Of a stretch of DNA of 43,336 bases, positions 1,682 through 43,336 are shown piece by piece (position 1 is the first letter of the stretch; the number at the start of each line of letters is the position of its first letter). The notes below the pieces were generated by a model. That model was not told the DNA's origin. It did not search any database and was given only the letters and a program-made list of their open reading frames with translations. A program made the position numbers and the translations under genes. The DNA is from a virus. The stretch lies in the IMG/VR virus record IMGVR_UViG_3300042478_002332. One strand, given 5' to 3'.

Positions 1682-2656
1682 TCAACCCTGCCCGCGGAGT
1701 TGCGCCGCCAATTTGCGTTTCGTGCGTTCGAATGCTGCCGCGTCTTCGCCCGTGAATTGTGCCGGCGGCGGGCGCTCGTCGCCCCCATGTCTGGCCGCGC
1801 CGCGCTTGGGCCGCGCGTAGTGATCGTTCGCGAGCCGATCCGCGAAGCCCTCGCCGCAAAATTGCGTCAGCGGCACGGGATCGGTGAAGAACTTCGCTTC
1901 CGCGAGTTTGGGAATGGCCGCGATGGCGGCATCCAGCCACCCAGGCTCCGCGAGCCGCTGCAACGCATTAGGCGGGGGCCGGCTGGAATCCCACCGCTGG
2001 CCCGCCCCAGCGTTCCACGCGGTTCGTAGACGATACCAGCGGGCTAGCGGGCCTTCGGGCGGGCCTTCCGTGGCTGCCCGTGGCTTGCCGGGGGATGGCG
2101 CAGCCTTTGGGGTGGTGGTGGTGGTGGCTGGAGCGGCTTGCCGCTCCTCCTCTACCTCCTCTCCTCTATCTCCTTTATTTCCTCTATTTAGTGTCTCACC
2201 ACCGTTACGGTTCGTAACGCTCCCGTAACGGTCATGCGTTACGGAAGCGTTACTACAGGGATTTGCCGGGGTTTTTGCGGTTTCTTCGCCGTTGTCGCCG
2301 CTTTCCCGCGCCCGATATTCCGACTGCCGGCGGGCATTTAATAGCCTAGCCTTCGCCGCTTTGCTAAATCGCGTATCCCACCCCGGCAGCGTAGCCCGCT
2401 CATTCTCTAAATCGAATTGCAGCCAGCCGACAGCCTCGACAGCCCGCCACCACTCCGCATCCCCACCGCACGCGAGCGCCATTAGTTCCGGCGTTGCGTC
2501 TAGCGTGCCGTCGCTGGAGTTGAGCGCGAACCATCCCCATAGCCGCCACAGGCGATAGACCACAACCTCACGCGGCAGCCCGGTTCGCGCGAGAAGTTTC
2601 AAAACCTCCGGTTTTGACTCTAGCGCGATATCGATCGGAATCCATTCCCCAGCCAT
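1682..2656 (-). CDS. putative replication protein (replisome-organiser-like N-terminus, low-complexity linker)
   Basis: 324-aa track ORF in the replication module. The N-terminal WIPIDIAL..KPEVLKL...LWRLWGW pattern is seen in phage replication initiators. Assignment is weak. Confidence 0.4.
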   Translation of the reverse strand: MAGEWIPIDIALESKPEVLKLLARTGLPREVVVYRLWRLWGWFALNSSDGTLDATPELMALACGGDAEWWRAVEAVGWLQFDLENERATLPGWDTRFSKAAKARLLNARRQSEYRARESGDNGEETAKTPANPCSNASVTHDRYGSVTNRNGGETLNRGNKGDRGEEVEEERQAAPATTTTTPKAAPSPGKPRAATEGPPEGPLARWYRLRTAWNAGAGQRWDSSRPPPNALQRLAEPGWLDAAIAAIPKLAEAKFFTDPVPLTQFCGEGFADRLANDHYARPKRGAARHGGDERPPPAQFTGEDAAAFERTKRKLAAQLRGQG

Positions 2657-3340: not shown

Positions 3341-3747
3341 GGTTCCGCCTGACGCTTCGCGACGGTTTCCAGCGTGTCGCCAATGCGGCGCATTTCGAAC
3401 AGGATCGACCGCATCACCCCCAGCAAGGCGCCTTGATCGGCAGCCAGCGGCGCGGCTTCTTGCGTTGCCGCCTCGCGGCATTGCTCATCGCCGGCATCAA
3501 GATCAGCGGCAAGCAACGCGGCGGCTTGTTTCGCGTCAACGTACACGGGGCCGCACTTGTCGCTAGGCGTTCGCATCACCTTGCAGGCGCGGATGCGCTT
3601 TGTGCGCCATGCGTCTAGCAACAATTCATATTCAGGCGTTCCCGGCTTTCCAGAAACGCGCGTTCCGTAGTCCGCGAGCGGCACAAATCCGTGCGGAACG
3701 TCCGTAATACTGCCCACCACAAACTGCCGATTCGCTTCCTTGTCCAT
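3322..3747 (-). CDS. hypothetical protein (141 aa)
   Basis: Start trimmed to ATG 3747 (TAGGAG upstream): MDKEANRQFVVGSI... Confidence 0.55.
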   Translation of the reverse strand: MDKEANRQFVVGSITDVPHGFVPLADYGTRVSGKPGTPEYELLLDAWRTKRIRACKVMRTPSDKCGPVYVDAKQAAALLAADLDAGDEQCREAATQEAAPLAADQGALLGVMRSILFEMRRIGDTLETVAKRQAEPWQTIG

Positions 3748-3797
3748 TGCCACAACTCCTAAAAGAACCAACCCACAAGCCTCACACCGCGTGCGGC

Positions 3798-4031
3798 TCA
3801 ATCAATCAAATCCGACGAAATCGATTCCGAAACCTTTCCGTGGAACCGATACGAAAACAGCGTCTTTCCAGCCTGCCGCCGAAAGTGCAGCGCGTACCCA
3901 TACAACCGGCCGCGATGCGGCAGCGGGATCGACCGCGGAAACTTCGTGACGCCGCGAGCGTCAAACGTAGCCCCGCAAGCCGGCCCGCCGACGAACTCCG
4001 CGGGCGGCAGTTTCTTAGAACGGGATATCAT
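3798..4031 (-). CDS. hypothetical protein (77 aa)
   Basis: Track ORF. ATG 4031 overlaps the end of the upstream gene. Confidence 0.45.
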   Translation of the reverse strand: MISRSKKLPPAEFVGGPACGATFDARGVTKFPRSIPLPHRGRLYGYALHFRRQAGKTLFSYRFHGKVSESISSDLID

Positions 4032-4530
4032 CGCTTCCCCCTTCCCATGCGGGCTTTCCGCCGCGCTTCTTCGGCGCGGCCTTCGCTTCCTGCTTTGCAG
4101 CCGGCGGCGCGGCCTGCGGCATGATCCACCGCGATACGCTCGCGCGAACTTCGCCGGCCTTCGGCCCGTTTTGCACCGTGTAGGTGTTCGTTTCCACGCG
4201 GCAGGTTTTGCCGATCAACAGCGTTTCGTCCCAATCCGGTTCGCCACGCTGCGGCGGTTCCAGGCCGCAAGCCCGCGCGATCACTGCAATGCGGCGAATG
4301 TTCGTGATCGGAACCGTGACGAAAACTCGCTTCTTCGCGCCATCCTCCACGCAATCAAGCCAGATCGAAAGGCAGTCCCCGGTTGGGTTGTCATCGCTCA
4401 CGCGCCAGCCGGTTTGAATCGTGGCCTGTTCGATCGTGCCGTCATGCTCCCCAGGTGACAACGGCTCGCGGGCAACCGGAGGCGCTTCGTCCAATTCGTC
4501 GCTAGGAAACTTGTCCCAATCAATTCGCAT
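4015..4530 (-). CDS. SSB-like single-strand DNA-binding protein candidate (possibly DUF669-type)
   Basis: The C-terminus ...WEGGSDDIPF matches the acidic DDIPF tip of bacterial SSB. It sits next to the AAA_24 ATPase. Start trimmed to ATG 4530 (GGAGGT 8 nt upstream). Confidence 0.6.
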   Translation of the reverse strand: MRIDWDKFPSDELDEAPPVAREPLSPGEHDGTIEQATIQTGWRVSDDNPTGDCLSIWLDCVEDGAKKRVFVTVPITNIRRIAVIARACGLEPPQRGEPDWDETLLIGKTCRVETNTYTVQNGPKAGEVRASVSRWIMPQAAPPAAKQEAKAAPKKRGGKPAWEGGSDDIPF

Positions 4531-4720
4531 CGCTCTGTACCTCCGGTTGATGTCCATTGCCGATACGCACGATGCGATCGGCCTGCATTTCGTGTCGATC
4601 ACTCATCCCTGCCCCATAGCCCAGCGCGTAAGCCTTGCCTAGCGCGTAGTCGATGCTTATTTCCCCGGTTCGAACGTCTGCCGCAATCGCGGCGAGCGTG
4701 CTGGATTCGTTCGTGCTCAT
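4520..4720 (-). CDS. hypothetical protein (66 aa)
   Basis: Track ORF with an ATGA start/stop overlap with the ATPase gene. Confidence 0.5.
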   Translation of the reverse strand: MSTNESSTLAAIAADVRTGEISIDYALGKAYALGYGAGMSDRHEMQADRIVRIGNGHQPEVQSDAN

Positions 4721-5634
4721 GTTGTGACGGCTCCCAGTTCCTCGCGGCGGGCATCGATCGCGGCTTCGATCGTGGCCCGTTGATCCGCCGTTATTTCGCC
4801 GGCCGTTTGCCGTGCGGCAACCTTCGGCGCGAGCCGATCCAGGGCAGCCGCGGACGATGTAGCGATAGCCTGGAGCGTCGATTCGATCGACTGCGGCTTC
4901 GTTGCAACCTTCAGCGGCGGCGCGACGAACACGGGCGCCAGCGCCTCAATCGAAAGCGGCATTTCAGACGGCAAACCGAAACGATTCTTGGCATCGAATG
5001 ACGCGGAGCGTTCCGCGTACATGACGCGGCTTTTTCCGCCGATGCCCTTTTTCCTGCCGTCTTGCCCCTCGACTAGCCGCGTCTGGAACGACACGAACAA
5101 CAGCAAATCCGCCCACTCTTTGAACAGCGGTGCGCATTGCTTCGATAGTTTCAATTCGTAGCGATCGTACCCGTCTGTCTGATCCGGCGGGCTGCAACGC
5201 TTTACGCCAGCGTGCGCGATGAAAGCCACGTTCACGCCGCGCGCGATCAGATCGTCAGCCACGGCAATAAACTTTGCCATTCGTTCCGCGAGGAGCGTCC
5301 AGCCTTTGCCGAAGCCGAAATCCTCAATCGATTTCTTGTTGGCGTTGCGGACAATCATTTCGACCAGCGAGCGCTCTGCCCAATCGATCGAATCGATTAC
5401 CACCGTTTCGAAGCCCTGCGCATCGCGCACCAGTTCGTGCATTGCCGCCTCCACTTCCGCGAACGTCGCGCAATGCACGCGGGAAACGTCTAGATGGCGG
5501 CTGCCGTCTTCAACGTCTAGAAAAAGCGGCTTCGGAAACTGCGCGGCTAACGTTGTTTTTCCGCTGCCTTCGTCCCCGTAGACAACGATACGCGCGGCCG
5601 ACTTCTGAACCCCTCGCGAAATCTGCAATCCCAT
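4717..5634 (-). CDS. AAA_24 / Sak4-like RecA-fold ATPase (recombination)
   Basis: Walker A VVYGDEGSGKTT, Walker B VVIDSID, and ...KNRFGLP near the C-terminus. Start trimmed to ATG 5634 (AAGGAAAGGAAC upstream). Confidence 0.8.
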   Translation of the reverse strand: MGLQISRGVQKSAARIVVYGDEGSGKTTLAAQFPKPLFLDVEDGSRHLDVSRVHCATFAEVEAAMHELVRDAQGFETVVIDSIDWAERSLVEMIVRNANKKSIEDFGFGKGWTLLAERMAKFIAVADDLIARGVNVAFIAHAGVKRCSPPDQTDGYDRYELKLSKQCAPLFKEWADLLLFVSFQTRLVEGQDGRKKGIGGKSRVMYAERSASFDAKNRFGLPSEMPLSIEALAPVFVAPPLKVATKPQSIESTLQAIATSSAAALDRLAPKVAARQTAGEITADQRATIEAAIDARREELGAVTT

Positions 5635-5638
5635 TGCT

Positions 5639-5845
5639 CTAGTTCCTTTCCTTGGTTTCTTCGAACACTCGTTCCCCGTCCTCCCGCAGCATTGCCCGCC
5701 AAACTTCGCGCCGATGAATCGACACGCTATCCGGCGCTTCAATGCCGATCCGCACCGTATCGCCGGCTATGCCGCCGACTACAATCTCAACGTCTAGCCC
5801 CGGCAATACGATTGCCTCGCCTTCCCTGCGCCTAAGCCAAAGCAT
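5639..5845 (-). CDS. csrA: CsrA-family RNA-binding translational regulator homologue
   Basis: MLWLRRREGEAIVL...VEIVVGGIAGDTVRIGIEAPDSVSIHRREVW aligns by eye with the CsrA consensus ML.LtRr.GE.i.I......v....g..VriGi.AP..v.v.ReE. Confidence 0.85.
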   Translation of the reverse strand: MLWLRRREGEAIVLPGLDVEIVVGGIAGDTVRIGIEAPDSVSIHRREVWRAMLREDGERVFEETKERN

Positions 5846-5867
5846 CCGTTGCCCCTTCTTTTGCAGT

Positions 5868-5895
5868 GACCGGCGGCATTCCGTTGCCGCCGGTC
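5868..5895 (-). promoter_or_regulatory. 10-bp-stem hairpin with a GGA-containing loop in the csrA leader
   Basis: Minus strand: GACCGGCGGC-AACGGAAT-GCCGCCGGTC. Further GGA motifs lie at GGAGG upstream and ACGGATG at the start codon. Confidence 0.6.
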
Positions 5896-5913
5896 GCGTC
5901 AGCCTCCGTGCCG

Positions 5914-6306
5914 TCAGCCGCGATCCATCGCGGCGCCCCCGTCCGTTGGTTTGTCGCCGTCGATGAACAGCGCGAAGCCGCGCGAAACTCGCCGCGCCAT
6001 TACCTCAACCTTTGCCGGTGTTCCCGGCGCGGCATCCGTTGCCGGCGTGGCCTGCATGGCGCTATCGATCGAATCGTGAATCGACGTTAGTTCCCCAATG
6101 GCGACGATCAGCGCATCCGCGAGGATCGTTTGATCCCCGGCCAGCGCCCGCGCCCGCCATTCATTCGTGCCGCTCGCGCTCTTGCGTTCGCGACCATAAA
6201 GCCGAATGACGTTGCATAGGTGAGCGTGGACGCGCGACGTTCGCCGCAGCCATCCGGCAAGCCGCCGGCCGATCGTGGCCGATAGCCGCGTGCGGCGGTT
6301 CGTCAC
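5914..6306 (-). CDS. hypothetical protein (130 aa, GTG start coupled to the upstream stop)
   Basis: The C-terminal two-thirds of track ORF 5914..6576 look protein-like. GTGA overlaps the stop of 6303..6521. Confidence 0.45.
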   Translation of the reverse strand: MTNRRTRLSATIGRRLAGWLRRTSRVHAHLCNVIRLYGRERKSASGTNEWRARALAGDQTILADALIVAIGELTSIHDSIDSAMQATPATDAAPGTPAKVEVMARRVSRGFALFIDGDKPTDGGAAMDRG

Positions 6307-6521
6307 CTCCGCAACGCTGCCGCCGCTGCCCAATCCGAATCCGTCCAGCCGGCGCGGATCGCCTCGCAGCCCGCGCGTATTTCTTCGGGGCTTGGCGCCC
6401 ATGCGTTCATCTGCCGCGACAGCCCGCGCACCTCCTCGCGGCTTATCCCTAGCCGCTGCGCTATCTGCGCCGTTGTCTGCCCTGCGTCCAGCCATTCGCG
6501 CACCGTTTGCTCTATGTCCAT
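6303..6521 (-). CDS. small helix-turn-helix DNA-binding protein, first gene of the early operon
   Basis: MDIEQTVREWLDAGQTTAQIAQRLGISREEVRGLSRQM is a classic HTH pattern. Start trimmed to ATG 6521. Confidence 0.65.
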   Translation of the reverse strand: MDIEQTVREWLDAGQTTAQIAQRLGISREEVRGLSRQMNAWAPSPEEIRAGCEAIRAGWTDSDWAAAAALRR

Positions 6522-6622
6522 GCGCCCCCCAGTTGGCAACTAGGGCCGCGGCGCTGCGTCCGTGCGTAGCAATCATCCGCCAGCCCCGTCGATGGTTCCT
6601 GCCGTCGCTCCATGCGGCGGCG

Positions 6623-6664
6623 CGTTGAACAAATCGAAGCCAGCGACGGTTTCGACGTTCAACG
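6623..6664. promoter_or_regulatory. 42-bp nested inverted repeat in the divergent early control region
   Basis: CGTTGAAC-aaaTCGAAgccagcgacggTTTCGAc-GTTCAACG, between the HTH gene start (6521) and the methyltransferase start (6720). Confidence 0.6.
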
Positions 6665-6719
6665 TGGGGGGGATACTACGAACCATTGGAAACTACTGTC
6701 AAGAGGAGTTTTTGCATTT

Positions 6720-7922
6720 ATGGGGAATCCCAAATCCGGCCGCGACGATGGGCAAAACGGGCAGGATATGCAGCCGGAAACGCGGATCATTGCGGGCGAT
6801 TGCTTGCAAGGAATGGCAACGCTGCCCGATAGCAGCGTGCATTGCGCGATCACCTCGCCGCCCTACTGGGGGCTTCGTGACTACGGCAACGCTGGGCAAA
6901 TCGGGTTAGAACCCACGCCGGAAGCCTACGTCGCCCGCATGGTGGAAGTGTTCCGCGAGGTGCGTCGAGTGCTGCGGGAGGACGGTACTTGCTGGATCAA
7001 CCTTGGGGATTCGTACAGCGGGAACGCTTCCAGCGGTGGCAAAAACTCCAACGACGGCGGGCCTGCCGTTCGTGTTGTTGGGGTTCCGACAAAACGTGGC
7101 GACGGCCTTAAGCCCAAAGACCTCGTAGGCATCCCTTGGCGTGTCGCCTTCGCCCTCCAGGCGGACGGATGGTGGCTGCGGCAGGATATCATCTGGCACA
7201 AGCCCAACCCTATGCCGGAAAGCGTGCGCGATCGCTGCACTAAGGCGCACGAATACGTGTTTTTGCTTGCGAAAAGCGTTGACTATTTTTTTGATGCAAA
7301 GGCAATCGACGAACCGCTAGCGACAAAGCCCCATGCGCCTGGGAACAAGGCAGGAAAAGATGGGGGCCACCTTCGAAATGATTTTGGAACGGATGCGATG
7401 GCGCGAGTATGGGGCGCTTCTGGAAGACGCAACCGGCGTTCAGTTTGGAAGATTGCCACGCGCCCATACCGCGGCGCACATTTCGCGGTCATGCCGCCGG
7501 CATTAGTTGCTGACTGCCTTCGCGCGGGAACCAGCGCCGCGGGTTGCTGTGCGGAATGCGGCGCTCCGATTCGCCGCGTTGTCTCGCGGGAGCGCGTTGC
7601 CACGCGCCCCGGCACGGACACAAAGACAACCGGCAACGCGGCGCGCGAAGGGAACCGCGATCCGCTGCGGCACGTTACGCAAACCGAAACGGTTGGATGG
7701 GAACCGTCGTGCGCCTGCAACGCCGCGCGAATCCCGGCGACCGTCTTTGACCCGTTCGCCGGCAGCGGAACTACGCTAGCCGTTGCCGTGGCGAATGGCC
7801 GAAGCGGGATCGGCTGCGAACTGAACCCCGACTATATCGCGCTCGCGGAACAACGGATCAGCGAGGCGCGATCAGTTTCGCCACTGGAACGCCAAGCGCT
7901 TCCGCCAGCGCGGACAGCGTAG
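6720..7922 (+). CDS. DNA methyltransferase, N4/N6 beta-class (PF01555-like), with no partner endonuclease recognised
   Basis: Motif IV is ITSPPYWGLRDYG near the N-terminus. Motif I is FDPFAGSGTTLAVA near the C-terminus. The start is ATG 6720 (AGAGGAG upstream) or ATG 6768. Confidence 0.85.
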   Translation: MGNPKSGRDDGQNGQDMQPETRIIAGDCLQGMATLPDSSVHCAITSPPYWGLRDYGNAGQIGLEPTPEAYVARMVEVFREVRRVLREDGTCWINLGDSYSGNASSGGKNSNDGGPAVRVVGVPTKRGDGLKPKDLVGIPWRVAFALQADGWWLRQDIIWHKPNPMPESVRDRCTKAHEYVFLLAKSVDYFFDAKAIDEPLATKPHAPGNKAGKDGGHLRNDFGTDAMARVWGASGRRNRRSVWKIATRPYRGAHFAVMPPALVADCLRAGTSAAGCCAECGAPIRRVVSRERVATRPGTDTKTTGNAAREGNRDPLRHVTQTETVGWEPSCACNAARIPATVFDPFAGSGTTLAVAVANGRSGIGCELNPDYIALAEQRISEARSVSPLERQALPPARTA

Positions 7923-8127
7923 ACACGCGCGGATCGGTAATGCGGCCGGTTGAAATGCGGTAGATCGTTTCCAGGCTCACGCCGGACGCCTCCGCGATTT
8001 CGTCTAGGTGTTTGTGCCGCCGCGCGGCTAGCCGCTCAATGCGGCGCCCTAGTTCCGTGCGCTCCAACTGTCGCGGCCTTCCGCCCGCGCCGCGTTCCCC
8101 GGCTTTTGCGTTGTTTACTGTCGCCAT
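7858..8127 (-). CDS. XRE/Cro-CI-type HTH regulator (repressor candidate)
   Basis: LDEIAEASGVSLETIYRISTGRITDPRVSTLSALAEALGV is an XRE-type HTH. Start trimmed to ATG 8127. The gene lies next to attP and int. Confidence 0.75.
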   Translation of the reverse strand: MATVNNAKAGERGAGGRPRQLERTELGRRIERLAARRHKHLDEIAEASGVSLETIYRISTGRITDPRVSTLSALAEALGVPVAKLIAPR

Positions 8128-8197
8128 TTCAATTCCATCCCTGGAGTTTGACCCGGCGCCCGTCGCGCCGCCACAATGGCGGCAGACGGGAACCGAA

Positions 8198-8250
8198 TAC
8201 ACCCGGCAGGGATCGAACCTGCAACCTTCGGTTCCGTAGACCGATGCGAC
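8198..8250 (-). other. attP core candidate: 3' portion of a tRNA-Arg(ACG) gene (anticodon arm to acceptor 3' strand), not a complete tRNA
   Basis: Minus strand: TCGGT-CTACGGA-ACCGA AGGTT GCAGG-TTCGATC-CCTGC CGGGTGT A. No complementary 5' acceptor strand or D-arm lies upstream. Confidence 0.75.
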
Positions 8251-8339
8251 ATATGGGGGGGAGGCCACCCGTAGGGATTGTGTTGATTTTGCTTTCCAAT
8301 TTTTTGATTGGGAGGGGAACGCACCACGCGGAAGGGCTA

Positions 8340-8370
8340 GTCACCGCGAGGGAGTGACGCTACCTATATC
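8340..8370 (+). promoter_or_regulatory. int control region: inverted repeat GTCAC-N9-GTGAC followed by TATATC, 8 nt before the int ATG (leaderless-type spacing)
   Basis: Direct reading. No Shine-Dalgarno sequence lies within 20 nt of ATG 8379. Confidence 0.4.
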
Positions 8371-8378
8371 GGCCACAC

Positions 8379-9260
8379 ATGATCCGCAGCAATTCGCCAA
8401 AGACTCTTGCCGGTTACGTTTCCGCGTATGCGCTCACGCATCCGCTAGAGCGCGAATCCATTCGGCAATACGAAATCGCCGTTCGCCTCCTCGACCGCTG
8501 GGCCGGTCATGCCGTGCGGCTTGACGAACTCGACGCGCCGCTAGTCTCGCAATGGATCGCGGACTATTCGCAGACGGTGGCGCCGCAGACCGCGCGGAGC
8601 AAGCGCCGCCAAATCGTTTCCCTATGGCGCTCCGCGGTCGATGATGGGCTATGCGATCCCGTGGCGCTCATGCGCCGCGTTCGCCCGGTGCGCTGCCCGT
8701 GGAAACCGCCCGTGGCATGGACGCGCGAGGAAGTGCAACGGCTCATCAATGCGTGCGCGGCTATCCCGCGGTGGCATCGCTGCGGGCTGCGGCGCTCTGA
8801 ATGGTGGGCGCTCGCGATCCGCGTTGCCTACGATTCGGGGCTACGGTGGGAGGATCAAATGTTCCGCCTTCGCGTGGATCAAATCACGGAGGAAGGTTTC
8901 ATAGCGTGGCCGCAGCATAAGACAGGGAGGGTTGTCGTTTGCCAGTTGTCGGAACCAACGTTGGCCGCGCTGCGGCTATCGCTGCAACGTTGCGCGCGCG
9001 AACTCGCTACCCCGTGGCTGGGCAGCCATGAAACGTTTTCCGATCAAGTGCGAACGATCGTTCGCCGCGCGGGCATTCGCAGCGGTACATGGAAATGGAT
9101 TCGCCGCACGGGGGCGACCGAATGCGAAATACAGGAACCGGGATCAGCCGGCCGGCATTTAGGACACGCCCCAGGAAGCAAACTCGCCTATTTGGCCTAT
9201 GTCGATCCTGCCCAGGTTGCCGCAGCCCGCGGGAAAACAACGCCGCGCGCCCTCGCTTGA
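8379..9260 (+). CDS. int: tyrosine recombinase / phage integrase
   Basis: AYDSGLRWED (Arg I), WIRRTGATE (box II Arg), HLGHAPGSKLAYLAYVD (His...Tyr). Adjacent to the tRNA fragment. Confidence 0.85.
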   Translation: MIRSNSPKTLAGYVSAYALTHPLERESIRQYEIAVRLLDRWAGHAVRLDELDAPLVSQWIADYSQTVAPQTARSKRRQIVSLWRSAVDDGLCDPVALMRRVRPVRCPWKPPVAWTREEVQRLINACAAIPRWHRCGLRRSEWWALAIRVAYDSGLRWEDQMFRLRVDQITEEGFIAWPQHKTGRVVVCQLSEPTLAALRLSLQRCARELATPWLGSHETFSDQVRTIVRRAGIRSGTWKWIRRTGATECEIQEPGSAGRHLGHAPGSKLAYLAYVDPAQVAAARGKTTPRALA

Positions 9261-9522: not shown

Positions 9523-9567
9523 GTTTCGCGGGGTTTTTCCAGGGGAAAGATTTTTTGGGTTAAGGGC

Positions 9568-9625
9568 TGGACAGGGTATTGCCGATCGGATATAGTGTTG
9601 GCATGACGCGGACGATTGAGCCGCG
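9568..9625 (+). promoter_or_regulatory. Cassette promoter P1: TGGACA-N17-TATAGT plus a 5' hairpin
   Basis: TGGACAgggtATTGCCGATCGGaTATAGTgttggcATGACGCGGacgattgagCCGCG. Confidence 0.65.
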
Positions 9626-9650
9626 GCAAACTTCAAAAGGAACCCAAGCC

Positions 9651-9890
9651 ATGACGAACTCCCAGTTTTCCGCTGCCGTCGAAATCGCCAAGGGCAACGC
9701 CGATCTTTCCCGCGTTGATACCGAAATCCTTTTCGGCTACGGGCTGCGGAACTTCGCCCCCGTCGCTGCCACCGTGGAAACCGTCGCCGCCGTGATTCGC
9801 TGGGATTGCTTGATGCTGAACGGCGAGTTTGACTCCGTGGCCCTCGACAACCTCCACAGCATCTTCCGCCGCAAAGTGACGGTTGTTTGA
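9651..9890 (+). CDS. hypothetical protein (79 aa)
   Basis: ATG preceded by the conserved AAAGGAACCCAAGCC. Confidence 0.6.
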   Translation: MTNSQFSAAVEIAKGNADLSRVDTEILFGYGLRNFAPVAATVETVAAVIRWDCLMLNGEFDSVALDNLHSIFRRKVTVV

Positions 9891-9904
9891 CCGCAAACCC
9901 ACCG

Positions 9905-9929
9905 CCCCCGCGGCACTTCGCCGCGGGGG
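9905..9929 (+). terminator. GC hairpin CCCCCGCGG-cacttcg-CCGCGGGGG (no U-tract)
   Basis: Direct reading. The same stem recurs at 10555..10579. Confidence 0.45.
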
Positions 9930-9960
9930 CCGCAACCCCCAGCCACTAGGAACCCCAGCC

Positions 9961-10146
9961 ATGACCACCGCCGAAAAAAACCTCGCAATCTCAACCGCCA
10001 TCGTCGCTCACCGGCTCGCCGGGAAAACCATCCGCGAAGCCGTGGACGCGGTTTTCGGCCCCGGCGGATACCAGCAAATCGCCGGCATCATTTGGGAAAT
10101 GCTGCGGGAAGCGGAAGGAATCGCCCCCGTGGAAAAATCCGCTTGA
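9961..10146 (+). CDS. hypothetical protein (61 aa)
   Basis: ATG preceded by TAGGAACCCCAGCC. Confidence 0.55.
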   Translation: MTTAEKNLAISTAIVAHRLAGKTIREAVDAVFGPGGYQQIAGIIWEMLREAEGIAPVEKSA

Positions 10147-10197
10147 CGGGCTATTGCCGTCCGGCTATACTTCCACCATGACGCGGCAACGAGCCGC
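10143..10197 (+). promoter_or_regulatory. Cassette promoter P2: TTGACG-N17-TATACT plus a 5' hairpin
   Basis: TTGACGggctATTGCCGTCCGGcTATACTtccaccATGACGCGGcaacgagCCGCG. The -35 overlaps the upstream stop codon. Confidence 0.65.
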
Positions 10198-10229
10198 GAG
10201 GAACCCACGAAAGAAAAGGAACCCAAGCC

Positions 10230-10544
10230 ATGACCGCGACCGAATCCAACGCGATTGCAACCGAAATCCTCAACCAGTTGGGCGGGGGGCGATTCGTCGC
10301 CATGACAGGCGCAAAGAATATTGCCCATGATGCGGGCGCCCTCCGCTTCCGCCTCCCCTCGCGGTTCGCCCGCGGCGGCATCAACGCGGTTCGCGTGACG
10401 CTGACCGCGGCCGACGATTATACGATCGAATACGGCAAGGTCTGGGGGCTGAACTATCGCGTTATCAAAACGCAAGCCGGCGTTTATGCGGACACGCTGC
10501 GGGCTTCGTTCAAGGCTGCGACGGGGCTGGATTGCACGCTCTAG
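10230..10544 (+). CDS. hypothetical protein (104 aa)
   Basis: ATG preceded by AAAGGAACCCAAGCC. Confidence 0.65.
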   Translation: MTATESNAIATEILNQLGGGRFVAMTGAKNIAHDAGALRFRLPSRFARGGINAVRVTLTAADDYTIEYGKVWGLNYRVIKTQAGVYADTLRASFKAATGLDCTL

Positions 10545-10554
10545 GAATCACAAG

Positions 10555-10579
10555 CCCCCGCGGCATTGGGCCGCGGGGG
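10555..10579 (+). terminator. GC hairpin CCCCCGCGG-cattggg-CCGCGGGGG
   Basis: Direct reading. Confidence 0.45.
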
Positions 10580-10610
10580 CAATCGACCACAAGCAAAAAG
10601 GAAAATCACA

Positions 10611-10835
10611 ATGGCGAAGGCAACGAAGATTGACGCGAATAGTTGGATTTATTGCGGCGTTCGAATTGAGCGAGGCGAGCATAGCCGAACGTATGTTCCT
10701 GCAATCAATGACGGGCAATGCCGCTCCTGCCGGCGCTTGAGCGATGCGGTTTTGGAAATCGACCTAGCCCGCTACCGCGCATGGGAAGCCGCCCAGCGCA
10801 ATGCCAAAGCCGCAGCCCCCACCCCCAGCCCGTGA
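10611..10835 (+). CDS. hypothetical protein (74 aa)
   Basis: ATG preceded by AAAAAGGAAAATCACA. Start trimmed from track ORF 10566. Confidence 0.55.
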   Translation: MAKATKIDANSWIYCGVRIERGEHSRTYVPAINDGQCRSCRRLSDAVLEIDLARYRAWEAAQRNAKAAAPTPSP

Positions 10836-10920
10836 CGGGCCGGGGGTGGCCGGGGGCCGCGGGGGCAAACCCCCGGTTTCCCGGCCGAAAACCCCACGAA
10901 AGATTTTTCCGCTCAAGGGC

Positions 10921-10978
10921 TTGTATCGATATTGCCGAATGGCTATACTAGAACCAACGCGAGCAAATGAGACTCGCG
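10921..10978 (+). promoter_or_regulatory. Cassette promoter P3: TTGTAT-N17-TATACT plus a 5' hairpin
   Basis: TTGTATcgatATTGCCGAATGGcTATACTagaaccAACGCGAGcaaatgagaCTCGCG. Confidence 0.6.
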
Positions 10979-11004
10979 GGAATGAAACGAAAGGAACCCC
11001 AGCC

Positions 11005-11184
11005 ATGTATCGGATCACCTTCGCAAACGGAACGGTTGAAAGCGGAATCAACTTCATCGTTGCGTGCCAGCAAATCCAGAATCGGCCTAGCGTCAACTGG
11101 CGTGCCGACATTGGCGAGTGGATCGGCGGGGTTTGCAAGGTGCGGCTGGATGGCCGAATCATCGCGACGATCACCGCAGCCTAA
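11005..11184 (+). CDS. hypothetical protein (59 aa)
   Basis: ATG preceded by AAAGGAACCCCAGCC. In frame with track ORF 10801..11184. Confidence 0.55.
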   Translation: MYRITFANGTVESGINFIVACQQIQNRPSVNWRADIGEWIGGVCKVRLDGRIIATITAA

Positions 11185-11193
11185 CCAAACCAA

Positions 11194-11222
11194 CCCCCAG
11201 CCGGCACGTTGCCGGCTGGGGG
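11194..11222 (+). terminator. GC hairpin CCCCCAGCCGGC-acgtt-GCCGGCTGGGGG
   Basis: Direct reading. Confidence 0.45.
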
Positions 11223-11257
11223 CAGCCCAACCCCAGGAAAGAACAGGAACCCCAGCA

Positions 11258-11551
11258 ATGACCACCGAAACCGCAACCGCCCCCGCCGTCGTTAAGTTCG
11301 CCGTTGGCACAACCTACTACACGCGAAGCGCTGGCGACCACAATTGCATATGGCGTTTCACGATCGTGCGCCGCAGCGCGTCTAGCGTTTGGATTGCCCA
11401 CGAAGGCGACCGCGGCCCCACGGTTGAACGCCGCAAGATCAGCGAATACAACGGGCGCGAAACGTTCGCCCCGTTTGGCCGATACTCCATGTCGCCTACG
11501 GTCTGGGCGGATCGCGTGGCCGATGGCGTGGCCGATCGCCGGGATTGGTAG
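11258..11551 (+). CDS. hypothetical protein (97 aa)
   Basis: ATG preceded by ACAGGAACCCCAGCA. In frame with track ORF 10967..11551. Confidence 0.55.
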   Translation: MTTETATAPAVVKFAVGTTYYTRSAGDHNCIWRFTIVRRSASSVWIAHEGDRGPTVERRKISEYNGRETFAPFGRYSMSPTVWADRVADGVADRRDW

Positions 11552-11562
11552 TCGAGAGGATA

Positions 11563-11587
11563 GCCCGCCGGCACGGGGCCGGCGGGC
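11563..11587 (+). terminator. GC hairpin GCCCGCCGGC-acggg-GCCGGCGGGC
   Basis: Direct reading. Confidence 0.45.
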
Positions 11588-11627
11588 GGTGGTCGCTTAT
11601 CAACGCTCAACGAGTAGGAAAACAACA

Positions 11628-11912
11628 ATGGGACGCGCCGCAAGCAAAAACGAAATCGCCGCCGCAGCCGAACGGAAAACTTTTGAGGTTTTCCACGATG
11701 CTTTTCGTGGCCGTTACTATGTGATCGATAGCCAGCAAGACGCAAACGGCAAGCGCATTTTTGAACACGATTCGCAAGCCTGCGAAAAGGCGATCGAACT
11801 TAACCTATCAACGATTTCCGAACTGCTCGCGCTCAATGCCAAACTACAGGCGCGGCTAGTCCATGCCACCGCGCAGGAAACGGCGCGGATTTGTTCCGGC
11901 AACGATAAGTAG
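11628..11912 (+). CDS. hypothetical protein (94 aa)
   Basis: ATG preceded by GTAGGAAAACAACA. In frame with track ORF 11304..11912. Confidence 0.55.
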   Translation: MGRAASKNEIAAAAERKTFEVFHDAFRGRYYVIDSQQDANGKRIFEHDSQACEKAIELNLSTISELLALNAKLQARLVHATAQETARICSGNDK

Positions 11913-11997
11913 CCGCCCCGGCCGGGGGGCTGCCGCAATCCGGCAGCCACCGTTTTCCCCGCGGAAAACAGCCCAAAAAATAATTCGGCTCAAGGGC

Positions 11998-12051
11998 TTG
12001 TCCTGATATTGCCGATCGGCTATAGTGTATCCAACGCGGTGAGGAACCGCG
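11998..12051 (+). promoter_or_regulatory. Cassette promoter P4: TTGTCC-N17-TATAGT plus a 5' hairpin
   Basis: TTGTCCtgatATTGCCGATCGGcTATAGTgtatccAACGCGGTgaggaACCGCG. Confidence 0.65.
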
Positions 12052-12078
12052 GAACCCAAAAGAAAAGGAAACCTAGCA

Positions 12079-12465
12079 ATGGCAACGAATTATGTGGTTC
12101 GCGGGATGGCTGAAGAAGGCAAGTGCGAGCATTGCGGCGCGAACTGCCCGAAGCGCCGCGTCTACGTTCAGCCGGTCTACGCGGACGGCGACCGCGGCGA
12201 GGTCGAAGCCTGGGGCGTGATTTGCGCCAGCAAGGCACGCGGCGAGCGTGGCACCGTGACCGATGGAAAGTATCTGACCCAGTTTGCGAAGCATTGCGAT
12301 CGCGTCCGGGCGATCGTCGCGGCCGGCGGCGGCTACAACGAAATCAACCGCGGCACGGTCTACAACTACCCGTTTGATATTCTCCGCGGGGTGGTGCGGG
12401 TTTTCACCTACGGCAACCGCACGAACTTTGCAGACGTTGAAATCCCCATGCCGGTGATCGGCTGA
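12079..12465 (+). CDS. hypothetical protein (128 aa) with an N-terminal CxxC...C cluster
   Basis: ATG preceded by AAAGGAAACCTAGCA. Contains CEHCGANCP. Confidence 0.65.
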   Translation: MATNYVVRGMAEEGKCEHCGANCPKRRVYVQPVYADGDRGEVEAWGVICASKARGERGTVTDGKYLTQFAKHCDRVRAIVAAGGGYNEINRGTVYNYPFDILRGVVRVFTYGNRTNFADVEIPMPVIG

Positions 12466-12588
12466 CGGCAGCCGCCCCCGCCGGCCGCGGTGGCCGGCGG
12501 GGGGTTCCCGGCCCCCGGCCGGCTGCCGGCCGAAACCCCCGGTTTCGCCCGCGAAAATCACGGTTCCAAAAAAAATCTGGATTGCCGC

Positions 12589-12647
12589 TTGACCTATTGC
12601 CGATCGGCTATATACTGGGAACATGACGCGAGCAAATGAGACTCGCG
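12589..12647 (+). promoter_or_regulatory. Cassette promoter P5: TTGACC-N16-TATACT plus a 5' hairpin identical to that of P3
   Basis: TTGACCtATTGCCGATCGGctaTATACTgggaacATGACGCGAGcaaatgagaCTCGCG. Confidence 0.6.
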
Positions 12648-12673
12648 GCAGGATTTCCGAAGGAACCAAAGCC

Positions 12674-13018
12674 ATGAAGACCGCCACCAAGACCAAGACC
12701 AGCCCGAAGGTTGCCGCCCTGGAGTTTCTGAACGCTTGCCAGCGTCAAGGCTGGACGGTTCGCGCCGATGAGGAAACCCGCGTCGTGACCATCACCAAGC
12801 ATTTCGCCCCCGGCGATAACGCCGCGTTCGTCGCCCTCGACGGCGAATATTACGATCTTCTCTCGCGGCTGCCGGCCCGCGGCGGTTCCATGTGGGGAAC
12901 GGACGGCAGCGGCGTGGGCGGCTACTCCGCGATCCTGCACGGTTGTTTCACGATGAACCTTTCCGGCGTGAGCGCGGCCGCCGTTCGCACCATCTACGGA
13001 ATCCTTTCCCGCGACTAA
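12674..13018 (+). CDS. hypothetical protein (114 aa)
   Basis: ATG preceded by GAAGGAACCAAAGCC. Start trimmed from track ORF 12623. Confidence 0.6.
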   Translation: MKTATKTKTSPKVAALEFLNACQRQGWTVRADEETRVVTITKHFAPGDNAAFVALDGEYYDLLSRLPARGGSMWGTDGSGVGGYSAILHGCFTMNLSGVSAAAVRTIYGILSRD

Positions 13019-13029
13019 CCGACAACCGC

Positions 13030-13053
13030 CCCCGGCGGCATCCGCCGCCGGGG
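13030..13053 (+). terminator. GC hairpin CCCCGGCGGC-atcc-GCCGCCGGGG
   Basis: Direct reading. Confidence 0.45.
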
Positions 13054-13068
13054 AAGGGGGGGCTACCA

Positions 13069-31658: not shown

Positions 31659-32948
31659 TCAGATAACTCCCAGAATAGAGGAACCGTTGATACCTAACTG
31701 CGCTCGGGAAAAGGTGAACGTGCCATTTGTGATGCTATTTGTGAGTCCGGCGGTAGCCATCACAGGATCGCCATAGATTGTGAGACCGCCGTTGAACGAG
31801 CCGCCAGAACGAACGTCCGAACGATCGTAGAACTCCGCGAAGCCGCTGACGGAGCCGCCAGTGAAGTACGAGTTGTCGAAGAACTTCGTATCGGCTCCGT
31901 TGAAGGTGCCGTAGCCTTGAGAGTTGTCGTAGAACGTCGCGTTGCCATTGACGGTGGCGCTGTAGTTTTGCGAGTAGTCATTGAATGTCGCGTTGTTAGT
32001 GATGGTGCCGCCGTTCTCGTTGGTCGAATACTCATAGAATGTCGCGCTGCCGAGAGTGCCGTTGTTTGACGCAGTGCCGTAGAATGTGGCGCTGCCGTTG
32101 ACGGTGCCGCTATAAAAGTTGTCAGCATCTATGTAAAACGTGGCGTCTCCGAGGACGGTGCCGTAGTTGCCGGTCGCACCGGTGTGGAACGTCGCGTTGA
32201 TATCGACGATGCCGTAGTTTTTTGCATCACCGTAGAACGCGGCGCCGCCCCAGACGGTGCCGTTGTTGTCGCCGTAGAACGTCGCGCTTCCGCTAACCGT
32301 GCCGTTGTTGGCTGAATTGTGGCCGTTGAACGTCGCGTCTCCGCTGACGGTGCCGTTGGTGCTGTTGGCTGAATCAGTGCCGTTAAACTCCGCGTCTCCG
32401 CTGACGGTGCCGTCGTTGATTGAAAAAGTGCCGTTAAACTCCGCGTCTCCGCCGACGGTGCCGCCGATGTTGTTGCACGAAGAATCGTCGTTGAACGTCG
32501 CGTCTCCGCTGACGGTGCCGTTGTTTCGCGAGACGCTGTTGAACGTCGCGTCTCCGCTGACGGTGCCGTTGTTTTCCCAATTGCCGTTGAACGTCGCGTC
32601 TCCGCTGACGGTGCCGTAGTTGATGCCCCAGCCGTCAACAAAATTGGCTCGCCCGGTATATGTCAGCGTCCTTCCTGCGGCGAGATATCCCCTAACGAAC
32701 TCCACAGTGCCGGTGCCGGTGACCGTGATGTCCAGGTCGATATTCGTTTGATTCGCGGTCAGATTGGCTACTGTTGGCTGCGCCCCGCTGTTGGTGCATT
32801 CAGGGCCGTAAATGTGAACGCTGTCGCTGCTCGTCGGCAGCGCTGCGGCAGCGTTTCGTGGATCGGCTTCGGGCGGGTCTGTCCACCAGTTGCCCAGAGT
32901 TTGCCAATCGGAGTCGCCGCCGTTGTTGTCAAAATACAGAGTTGCCAT
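31659..32948 (-). CDS. beta-solenoid-type repeat protein (about 17 copies of G-T-V-S-G-D-A-T-F-N/Y-G...N-N)
   Basis: Units read directly: NYGTVSGDATFNGNWEN, NGTVSGDATFNSVSRN, NGTVSGDATFNDD..., GTVSGDAEFNG..., through GSVSGFAEFYD. Confidence 0.7.
   Translation of the reverse strand: MATLYFDNNGGDSDWQTLGNWWTDPPEADPRNAAAALPTSSDSVHIYGPECTNSGAQPTVANLTANQTNIDLDITVTGTGTVEFVRGYLAAGRTLTYTGRANFVDGWGINYGTVSGDATFNGNWENNGTVSGDATFNSVSRNNGTVSGDATFNDDSSCNNIGGTVGGDAEFNGTFSINDGTVSGDAEFNGTDSANSTNGTVSGDATFNGHNSANNGTVSGSATFYGDNNGTVWGGAAFYGDAKNYGIVDINATFHTGATGNYGTVLGDATFYIDADNFYSGTVNGSATFYGTASNNGTLGSATFYEYSTNENGGTITNNATFNDYSQNYSATVNGNATFYDNSQGYGTFNGADTKFFDNSYFTGGSVSGFAEFYDRSDVRSGGSFNGGLTIYGDPVMATAGLTNSITNGTFTFSRAQLGINGSSILGVI
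32321..32620. repeat. Six near-identical DNA copies of cgcgtctccgc(t/c)gacggtgcc(g) with a period of 47-57 bp, inside the repeat-protein gene
   Basis: Direct reading of lines 32281-32640. Confidence 0.85.
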
Positions 32949-41998: not shown

Positions 41999-42311
41999 AA
42001 GGGGTTTTCGCTTCATGCCGTTTCGGCACGCTCCGAGCAAGCCGAAATGACATGATGCGTTTATACCTTGTTTTCTAGTGTTTTATGCACATCGCGTGCG
42101 AATGTGCCGTATTTCCTAGTGGCAATATCAGTGGATGCAGGAATATAGGGCTTCCAGCACTTGATATGCGTTTCGTGCTGGAATTATGGGGTTTTTCGCT
42201 CTATGCCTATTCGGCACGCCATGAGCAAGCCGAAATGACATATCCATAAAATGCCCTTTTTTATGATGCGAAACGTACATCGCGTGCGAAAACCCCTTAT
42301 TTCCTAGTGGC
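41999..42311. repeat. AT-richer non-coding repeat region: a partial tandem duplication of about 187 bp, bounded by a 13-bp inverted repeat
   Basis: 41999-42011 AAGGGGTTTTCGC versus 42286-42298 GCGAAAACCCCTT. 42001-42053 is nearly the same as 42188-42241. 42087-42123 is nearly the same as 42275-42311. Confidence 0.8.
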
Positions 42312-42644
42312 TATATGGGCAGCGATTTTTTCGGCCACCGCTGGCAATGCGTCCAGTTCCACGATTGCTATCCATTTCTGCCCGTTGCGACGATGGCACA
42401 CCATCGCGGGAATGCCCGCGGGCGCGTCCGCGTTGGCCTGCGCCAGCGCTGCATATGCGTTCAGCGTTTCGGTTCGCTTGCATTCGATATGCAAGGGCAA
42501 CGCTAGGGCAACGTCGGGCGAGTCTGGCCCGCCTTGAAACTGAACCCCTCGCCTAGCGTTAGTGTGTTCGCCTAACACGCGATTCAACTCCGCGGCTAGG
42601 TCGCGCTCGCCGCGCTTGCCCTTCTGCCTAGACATTCTGCCCAT
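42297..42644 (-). CDS. PD-(D/E)xK nuclease, Holliday-junction-resolvase-like
   Basis: SRQKGKRGERDLAAEL...GGPDSPDVALALPLHIECKRTE has the D...ExK core and the KGxxGE N-terminus typical of small phage resolvases. Confidence 0.6.
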   Translation of the reverse strand: MGRMSRQKGKRGERDLAAELNRVLGEHTNARRGVQFQGGPDSPDVALALPLHIECKRTETLNAYAALAQANADAPAGIPAMVCHRRNGQKWIAIVELDALPAVAEKIAAHIATRK

Positions 42645-43084: not shown

Positions 43085-43121
43085 CCACGCGATGCAGCGG
43101 ACTGCGCCGCTGATCGCTGGC
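43085..43121 (-). repeat. 37-bp perfect direct repeat, copy 2 (intergenic)
   Basis: Identical to 149..185. Confidence 0.9.
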
Positions 43122-43130
43122 GTTCTGTGG

Positions 43131-43336
43131 CTACTCTGCCTTCCACCCGTTGTGGATGTACGCCAGCACGGCATGAAATGCCGCCACCTCGCCAGCCGTC
43201 CTAGCGGCATCTGCGGTCAACGGCTCGCCGCCTGCCTTTGCGATCAGGCCGATAGTGTCTAGCCGCGTCTCGCGCTTCTCAATCTGCCACCGCATCCAGT
43301 CGATGAGGCTGCCATGCTGCCTGTTCATGGCATTGC
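43131..43336 (-). CDS. C-terminal part of the junction-spanning hypothetical protein (91 aa in total; the start is at window position 109)
   Basis: The track ORF 43131..43328 is truncated only by the window edge. Confidence 0.6.
   Translation of the reverse strand, partial: NAMNRQHGSLIDWMRWQIEKRETRLDTIGLIAKAGGEPLTADAARTAGEVAAFHAVLAYIHNGWKAE

Follow-up and report, generated by a model that had tools for sequence, protein, structure and literature searches.

The 43.3-kb genome of a complete circular temperate siphophage, IMG/VR record IMGVR_UViG_3300042478_002332, was analysed over its full length of 43,336 nucleotides (nt; hereafter the window). On its minus strand it encodes a 68-amino-acid (aa) protein which is a true member of the CsrA family, and the messenger RNA (mRNA) leader of this gene carries an array of hairpins with loops of the form A-N-GGA-N. 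In related metagenomic phages the loop motifs are invariant, the stems covary, and the array is always placed before csrA. We consider it probable that the array serves the negative translational autoregulation of the phage csrA, as in Escherichia coli csrA, with binding and repression predicted from the conserved leader and from the E. coli precedent. The gene and its leader hairpins are as follows.

5639..5845, minus strand: csrA homologue, 68 aa, coordinates including the TAG stop (MLWLRRREGEAIVL...HRREVW...)
5917..5934, minus strand: hairpin HP0, GCCGCGA-UGGA-UCGCGGC, GGA at 5926..5924, -11.8 kcal/mol, z = -3.8
5900..5913, minus strand: hairpin HP1, CGGC-ACGGAG-GCUG, GGA at 5907..5905, -2.9 kcal/mol
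5868..5895, minus strand: hairpin HP2, GACCGGCGGCA-ACGGAA-UGCCGCCGGUC, GGA at 5882..5880, -23.1 kcal/mol, z = -6.5
5839..5855, minus strand: hairpin HP3 (weak), GGGGCA-ACGGA-UGCUUU, GGA at 5847..5845, -2.9 kcal/mol

The CsrA-family protein and its leader

The 68-aa open reading frame (ORF) had been proposed from the sequence alone to be a CsrA homologue, and both profile and structure comparisons bear this out. It matches Pfam PF02599 with 64.6 bits (E 7.7e-18, cut-off 27), residues 1-51 corresponding to profile positions 1-50 of 53, and it matches PHROG 9500, 'CsrA-like regulator', at 1.7e-13; CsrA, RsmA and RsmE sequences from the PDB align to it with E values of about 1e-9. When an AlphaFold (AF2) monomer model, built from 29 sequences and with a mean confidence score (pLDDT) of 87.1, was compared with the PDB by Foldseek, ranks 1-14 were all CsrA/RsmA/RsmE chains, with template modelling scores (TM, target) of 0.69-0.88 and root-mean-square deviations of 1.3-2.0 Å. 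DSSP assigned strands to residues 11-14, 19-25 and 31-36 and a helix to residues 46-67 of this monomer, leaving the N-terminal and beta5 regions unassigned as strands.

CsrA contacts RNA through positions in beta1 and beta5, among which Arg44 (E. coli numbering) is critical. The counterparts of E. coli L2, L4, R6, I32, G33 and R44 do not vary across 29 sequences of the clade and its outgroup, and those of L2, L4, R6 and R44 are also kept in the nearest cellular relatives of the clade; R44 is R45 of the phage protein by alignment numbering. R7 is arginine or lysine in 27 of these 29 sequences, with serine and asparagine in the remaining two, and V41, I43 and V48 show conservative changes. By analogy with its relatives, the phage CsrA is presumably a homodimer with two RNA-binding faces. 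Its scores fall below the cut-offs of both NCBIfam equivalog models (NF002469, 57.5 against 73 bits; TIGR00202, 52.9 against 70.1 bits), and judged by these profiles it is not an equivalog of the housekeeping chromosomal CsrA. It belongs to a small, distinct clade present in phages, with the signature MLWLRR(K/R)...GDTVRIG, to which protein searches assigned about 30 clusters of 5.8 billion.

The csrA leader is a 68-nt spacer (5913..5846) that follows the stop codon of the upstream ORF at 5916..5914. The original prediction had described in it a hairpin at 5895..5868, with 10-bp arms GACCGGCGGC/GCCGCCGGUC and the loop AACGGAAU, as well as two further GGA motifs. All of these are present, except that RNAfold adds one A-U pair to the hairpin, so that HP2 has an 11-bp stem and the hexaloop ACGGAA. 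The further motifs are ACGGAGG at 5909..5903, in the HP1 region, and ACGGAUG, which covers the csrA start such that its GGA (5847..5845) overlaps the AUG (5845..5843). HP0 sits within the last codons of the upstream ORF, HP1 is weak when taken alone (14 of 200 shuffles fold equally well), and HP3 pairs the G-run of the Shine-Dalgarno (SD) sequence with codons 1-3. RNAfold of the window leader places GGA in three loops (z = -4.0), and the four GGAs, at 5926, 5907, 5882 and 5847, are spaced by 19, 25 and 35 nt.

Raw GGA counts and motif-defined GGA-loop hairpins within the window were dropped as evidence, as they are not significant in a GC-rich genome: four GGAs within 98 nt are seen in 11.5% of same-strand windows, which is not unusual, and for 27% of all GGA triplets of the genome a loop with at least four closing pairs can be found. 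The csrA leader region is the densest A-N-GGA cluster in the window. Its real significance comes from conservation and covariation among relatives and not from counts within the window. One further ACGGA hairpin (6044..6030) was rejected because it is not conserved in relatives. Another A-N-GGA cluster, at 3841..3664, overlaps the 3' end of a 77-aa ORF (3798..4031) and the 5' end of the 3322..3747 gene, which are separated by a spacer of about 50 nt.

Conservation and covariation of the array

Twelve distinct leaders from related metagenomic phages were aligned (individual loci are designated L001 and so on); a thirteenth, L031, agrees with them. The expectation that the leader holds GGA-loop hairpins of the CsrA-target type is borne out by three hairpins, HP0, HP1 and HP2, whose loops all read A-N-GGA-N. 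Without exception the 12 leaders have this A and this GGA in each loop, and every N column of the loops contains three to four different bases. In HP0 the core GA-N-GGA-UC is likewise invariant in all 12 and the outer stem covaries, the variants being CGCGA/UCGCG, GCUGA/UCAGC and CGCCGA/UCGGCG, with CCCGA/UCGGG in L031. The HP1 pair 39-50 takes the forms GU, AU, CG and GC. Across the 12 leaders, 94.7% of the HP2 cells are paired; three pairs change in a compensatory manner (A-U/G-C, C-G/G-C and G-C/C-G), and G-U variants occur as well.

Taken over the whole array, changes on both sides occur at 10 of the 22 stem pairs. The covariation score of 0.267 compares with 0.109 for shuffles, none of 500 reaching it, and with at most 0.079 for slid controls, and RNAalifold recovers HP0, HP1 and HP2 with no structure supplied. 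G-U pairs are found solely on the csrA-sense strand, and the array is therefore an RNA feature. The 12 leaders together contain 76 GGAs where 27 are expected, and a search with a covariance model of the array located a single copy in each genome, in every case before csrA, with 73-107 bits as compared to at most 23 for the next hit.

The array partly overlaps the end of the upstream ORF. In most relatives the GGA of HP1 is an in-frame glycine codon which stays fixed while its neighbours vary, and GGA is a minority codon, accounting for 12.5% of the glycine codons in this phage. The window retains the stop codon of the relatives (TGA, 5901..5899) and has an extra, premature in-frame TGA 15 nt earlier, which turns the HP1 sequence non-coding; the sequence is still kept. 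In 10 of 12 relatives, 1-6 nt separate the stop of the upstream ORF from HP2; in L001-L003 this stop is lost and reading continues through HP2. HP3 fails to align across relatives. Eleven of the 12 leaders have a GGA no more than about 20 nt from the AUG; its position shifts, and it is indistinguishable from a normal SD sequence. The distance from HP2 to the GGA of the ribosome-binding site is 35 nt in the window; in L005 and L006 it is about 23-26 nt.

As far as can be read from sequence, the leader array shows the canonical geometry of CsrA binding sites: GGA is presented in hairpin loops in an A(N)GGA context, and in the window at least two sites lie 10-63 nt apart, one of them overlapping the SD sequence or the start codon. 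An Rfam search of the leader region returned no hit, neither at the gathering threshold nor at E <= 10. HP2 is followed by ACUGCAAAAG and has no U tract on either strand, so that no intrinsic terminator was recognised there; no terminator-like minus-strand site was called in 5500..8500, and no promoter-like or terminator-like site flanks the array. Having neither a promoter nor a terminator of its own and no Rfam match, the array does not classify as a sponge small RNA (sRNA) of the CsrB, RsmY or RsmZ type.

Probable autoregulation and competing explanations

Autoregulation by CsrA, one of the roles suggested for the protein in the original prediction, has gained comparative support from the three covarying hairpins with invariant loops, which occur in 12 leaders (13 with L031), once per genome and always before csrA. 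High-affinity CsrA sites are GGAs in hexaloops, and one CsrA dimer bridges two sites that are 10-63 nt apart (PMC7652899). The spacing of the four GGAs in the window, with the last of them on the AUG, is the reason why we read the array as an autoregulatory operator.

In the process that we favour, csrA would be transcribed early, as an internal cistron of a leftward operon. Once CsrA has accumulated, a dimer would dock on the very stable HP2 and its second face would bridge HP2 to the GGA at the ribosome-binding site; the bridged dimer would block initiation, so holding CsrA at a set level. HP0 and HP1, with spacings of 19 and 25 nt, might hold a second dimer or add avidity. Ribosomes on the upstream ORF may transiently melt the HP0 and HP1 sites, a coupling that we infer from the location of these sites in or just after the upstream ORF, the stop of which abuts HP2 in most relatives. 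Free CsrA could then act on other GGA-bearing mRNAs of the phage or the host.

Several observations weigh against autoregulation through the array. With its 11-bp GC stem, HP2 greatly exceeds typical CsrA sites in stability; CsrA ligands obtained by in vitro selection (SELEX) mostly have no more than four contiguous pairs, and binding may suffer where a stem is very stable (PMC7652899). The GGA near the SD sequence has no conserved position and is missing from L004, which keeps HP0-HP2. Subclade D (L022-L024) belongs to the same protein clade and has the upstream ORF (42% identity) without the array, which is thus not obligatory for the protein, and the sampled phage csrA genes from Vibrio phage D279, Pseudomonas phage PP9W, Bacillus phage Dartukuta, L008 and L009 have no such leader. 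GC-rich hairpins without U tract follow many genes of this phage, and HP2 could in part be a generic intercistronic hairpin of this kind. HP0 and HP1 share sequence with coding regions, and some of their conservation may thus reflect the encoded protein. Finally, the covariation is based on a handful of lineages.

Alternatively, the array might be bound by CsrA and act chiefly as a decoy or timer, where the abundant early polycistronic mRNA soaks up the protein and releases it on decay, or it might control the stability or polarity of the Sak4 and replication cistrons downstream. Sequestration of CsrA by multi-GGA hairpin arrays is the known action of CsrB and RsmZ (PMC7652899), and three high-quality sites next to an SD site that is merely loosely conserved, or missing as in L004, would suit such a role; the start of sak4 abuts the csrA stop, so that downstream expression could be coupled. 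However, three to four sites per mRNA represent a small capacity, there is no separate promoter or terminator and no hit to an Rfam sponge family, and the layout mirrors that of the glgC and csrA leaders, in which an upstream hairpin plus an SD site gives repression (PMC7652899). We regard this as a possible, if unlikely, explanation.

It is quite unlikely, in our view, that the hairpins are targets of a host CsrA/RsmA, such that the phage csrA is under host Csr control and its product either acts solely on mRNAs of the host or competes or forms heterodimers. The array is present once per genome and only beside csrA, which fits a self-target, and the sole host hint is a metagenome-assembled genome (MAG) of the Beijerinckiaceae, while some proteobacterial classes and the chromosome of Sinorhizobium meliloti have no csrA (PMC7366521). 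It is nevertheless true that the sites fit the general CsrA consensus rather than a phage-specific one, and that Pseudomonas phage CsrA homologues alter quorum-sensing, motility and biofilm traits of the host (PMC7546807).

A third possibility is that the hairpins, as generic intercistronic structures, stabilise 3' ends, are processed by RNase or serve as terminators without U tract, and that their GGA loops are unrelated to CsrA. Hairpins after genes are common in this phage, as mentioned, such structures usually stand where HP2 does in 10 of 12 relatives, 1-6 nt past the upstream stop, and GGA-loop hairpins are frequent by chance in this genome. The strongest argument to the contrary is that the loops of generic hairpins would be unconstrained, whereas here the A and the GGA are invariant in 12 of 12 leaders and the other loop bases and the stems change. 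Moreover, the minority GGA glycine codon in HP1 is nonetheless fixed, a U tract is lacking on either strand, and the loops of other post-gene hairpins (ACUU, AUUGG and CACGUU) do not contain GGA. This makes a purely generic origin very unlikely.

It is extremely unlikely that HP2 is a DNA palindrome serving as operator for a dimeric DNA-binding protein: its 11-bp perfect inverted arms would allow for this, and compensatory changes would likewise preserve a palindrome, but the G-U pairs in L001 and L018 would turn into A-C mismatches in DNA or on the opposite strand, the conserved A-N-GGA-N in the centre lacks symmetry, no promoter is nearby, and the three hairpins have a common loop motif and not a common arm sequence.

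Operon, relatives, host and cassettes

The contig has an exact 40-nt terminal direct repeat (1-40 = 43297-43336) and therefore is circularly closed and represents a complete genome of about 43.3 kb, with a GC content of about 62%. A second near-repeat of 42 nt is found at 149-190 and 43085-43126. A search among 50,697 deposited phage genomes (INPHARED) revealed no close relative, the sole match being a methyltransferase fragment. Genes for a DNA methyltransferase, a tape-measure protein, a portal protein, a large terminase and a protease/capsid fusion were also identified. The integrase gene and the features around csrA, including helix-turn-helix (HTH) proteins, are listed here.

8379-9260, plus strand: integrase
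7858-8268, minus strand: HTH regulator
6673..6702, minus strand: candidate promoter of the leftward early operon, TTGACA-18-TAGTAT, 10 of 12 matches in a consensus scan; a consensus match only
6303..6521, leftward early operon: small HTH-like protein
5914..6333, minus strand: ORF upstream of csrA, 130-162 aa by start choice, 3' end carrying HP0
4717..5634, minus strand: Sak4-like AAA_24 ATPase (PHROG 124, 4.6e-48; PF13479 AAA_24, 3e-48)
4015..4530, minus strand: SSB-like protein, 171 aa, downstream of Sak4, C-terminal GGSDDIPF
1682..2656, leftward early operon: replication initiator

The order in the operon is small HTH protein, ORF 5914..~6333, csrA, Sak4-like ATPase, a 66-aa ORF, SSB-like protein, further ORFs and replication initiator, and csrA is thus located, as originally described, in the early module directly upstream of the Sak4-like ATPase, whose assignment is confirmed by the two family matches listed. 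The AUG of the Sak4-like gene lies 5 nt past the csrA stop and its SD sequence is within the csrA 3' end. No promoter-like or terminator-like site was found between the candidate promoter 6673..6702 and csrA. The ORF 5914..6333 has no family match in Pfam, PHROG or NCBIfam, and it was for this reason rejected as a known CsrA antagonist; it is kept in all subclades, with 49% identity in L025 and 42% in L024. The 4015..4530 product is also without a match in Pfam, PHROGs and NCBIfam, and its GGSDDIPF end is the acidic tip typical of SSB proteins.

The DNA methyltransferase gene (6612-7922, plus strand) opposes the early operon and sits between a Cro-like HTH gene and the csrA operon. This opposed arrangement is kept in the subclade A-C relatives with recovered upstream flank (L001, L021, L025, L029-L032), and no methyltransferase is found at the corresponding place in subclade D (L022, L024).

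The related loci with retrievable DNA come from freshwater or environmental metagenomes, on contigs no larger than a phage genome. In every related locus whose downstream product has a recorded Pfam hit, csrA is directly followed by an AAA_24 gene; in L022/L023 and L028 the contig ends within the downstream gene, whose product has no hit, and these loci stand outside this count. A set of HTH gene, methyltransferase gene and ORF of unknown function lies upstream of csrA in subclades A-C where the flank was recovered. Contigs encoding the exact protein are all at most 50 kb and phage-only. By tblastn, csrA homologues were detected in 44 of 50,697 phage records, with at most 49% identity, some of these records being mislabelled bacterial DNA. 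Matches in 'Acinetobacter phage MD-2021a' were rejected as phage because L016 (CAKLQH020000034.1) is a bacterial chromosome with the gene order thrA-csrA-rnhB, and counts of 'phage' csrA genes in the phage collection are consequently slightly inflated.

A single, weak hint at the host is provided by two short contigs that were binned in a MAG of the Beijerinckiaceae, i.e. of an alphaproteobacterium. Some proteobacterial classes are without CsrA, and the alphaproteobacterium S. meliloti is without a chromosomal csrA (PMC7366521). If the host indeed has no Csr system, the 'hijack' of a host regulon would amount to imposing a new regulator and not to capturing an existing regulon.

A second group of genes had been connected to CsrA in the original prediction. 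On the plus strand, the region 9540-13060 contains about nine small genes (59-128 aa, no Pfam hit) in repeated modules with the order promoter-like element, 5' hairpin, AAGGAACC-type initiation region and small gene; several modules end in a GC-rich hairpin without U tract, and the same modules occur in the related phages L005, L025 and L031. Each promoter-driven cassette is headed by an 18-mer, TATTGCCG-N3-GG-N-TATA, with 11 matches against 0.15 expected. It is a near-palindrome overlapping a TATACT/TATAGT -10 box and looks like a shared promoter/operator of the cassettes.

9577-9594, plus strand: 18-mer copy
10152-10169, plus strand: 18-mer copy
10930-10947, plus strand: 18-mer copy
12007-12024, plus strand: 18-mer copy
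12595-12612, plus strand: 18-mer copy
39403-39386, minus strand: 18-mer copy
42110-42127: degenerate 18-mer copy
42298-42315: degenerate 18-mer copy

Within the cassette region a 92-nt direct repeat (77% identity) is found at 10870-10961 and 11947-12038. Two repeat families (53 nt, 85% identity; 66 nt, 73% identity) immediately precede the terminase region, in two copies each, 188 nt apart (42001-42128 / 42189-42316), and contain degenerate copies of the TATTGCC motif.

The ribosome-binding site AAGGAACC, for which invariance had been claimed, is indeed recurrent, with five occurrences against 0.75 expected, four of which are followed after 6-7 nt by the ATG of a small plus-strand gene; 'invariant' is too strong, however, as the four variants TAGGAACC, CAGGAACC, AAGGAAAC and TAGGAAAA are also used. 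The sequence GAGGAACCCACGAAAGAAAAGGAACCC precedes the ATG at 10230 as described. The suggestion that CsrA times the translation of the cassettes found no support. Cassette leaders contain 1.78 GGAs as compared to 1.33 for other genes, the cassette GGA is an ordinary SD signal which occurs at that position in all gene classes, and a second upstream GGA is not enriched (7 vs 4.2 expected, P = 0.14; 5 vs 5.2 in L031). Cassette leaders as CsrA targets are thus unsupported beyond their ordinary SD content. The 12079 leader, which is the sole cassette leader with a GGA in a hairpin loop (GCGGU-GAGGA-ACCGC), has two more GGAs and is kept in L005; it is a candidate target only. In the minus-strand late genes (14000-42000), GGA at -45..-18 is below local background (9 vs 17.6 expected), and in the early-left genes and the cassettes it is at or above expectation.

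In the structural module, a 429-aa ORF (31659-32948, minus strand) without PHROG match contains nine imperfect repeats with start-to-start spacings of 48-153 nt, the last five being 48-57 nt apart; its product may be a repeat-rich fibre or decoration protein.

A more far-reaching scenario, which we mention tentatively and consider rather doubtful, is that these temperate phages carry a self-contained Csr module, consisting of the regulator and its GGA array, into their hosts, possibly Alphaproteobacteria without Csr. How much CsrA is free, and when, would be determined by the array, and free CsrA would be a RegA-like translational switch on the many cassettes, with their near-identical AAGGAACC regions as operators. 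For hosts without Csr, this would be a natural example of a mobile element that imports a whole layer of post-transcriptional control.

Relation to known systems

Sobrero and Valverde 2020 (PMC7366521) described a csrA gene in 30 of 2,517 phage genomes, among them those of phages whose hosts have no csrA on the chromosome. The Bci/RsmM-type CsrA of Pseudomonas aeruginosa phage AUS531phi affects infection and quorum-sensing traits (PMC7546807), and gp28 of PTXU04 is another reported phage CsrA homologue (PMC11879866). Knock-out or knock-down of these two changes infection efficiency, host traits or plaque size (PMC7546807, PMC11879866), and none of the three reports (PMC7366521, PMC7546807, PMC11879866) names a direct RNA target or a cis-target. 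The protein described here resembles the reported ones in being a CsrA-domain protein that is rare among phages and is proposed to reprogram translation. It differs in being at most 49% identical to them and in forming a separate clade that is tied to a Sak4-like gene and, unlike the other phage CsrAs sampled, has a hairpin array. This clade supplies a candidate RNA target of about 100 nt, supported by covariation and adjoining the gene, which makes the biochemistry of a phage CsrA directly testable. If binding proves true, the defined A-N-GGA-N motif may be used to seek more targets in phage and host transcripts.

A close parallel is the autoregulatory csrA leader of E. coli (Yakhnin et al. 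2011, as reviewed in PMC7652899). It too has several GGA sites in the gene's own leader, one of them at the SD sequence or start codon; the spacing in the phage lies within the dimer range of 10-63 nt, and translational self-repression would likewise be expected. In contrast to the E. coli leader, that of the phage is intercistronic within an operon and partly overlaps the upstream ORF, and its sites are regular A-N-GGA-N loops, one of them on an unusually stable 11-bp stem. The phage leader has no sequence similarity to that of E. coli and no known sRNA antagonist, and CsrA binding is a prediction in the phage case.

Plasmids also import CsrA-type regulators: examples are RsmQ of pQBR103 (PMC9928087) and the csrA of pMBA19a (PMC7366521), the latter having entered an alphaproteobacterium without chromosomal csrA, S. 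meliloti (cited in PMC7366521). These differ from the phage gene in being located on plasmids and in other gene neighbourhoods.

The sponge RNAs CsrB, CsrC, RsmY and RsmZ have repeated hairpins with GGA in the loop, as has the phage array, and are bound cooperatively by CsrA dimers. They are independent sRNAs that have 4-22 sites and a promoter and a terminator of their own, whereas the phage array consists of 3-4 sites inside an mRNA and matches no Rfam family.

RegA of phage T4 is a phage-encoded translational repressor that binds the initiation regions of early mRNAs, its own included. The fold of RegA and its recognition sequence are unrelated to those of the phage CsrA, and the analogy is functional only. 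Phage-encoded CsrA as a kind was already known; what is new here is this CsrA clade together with its conserved cis-element, which is absent from Rfam.

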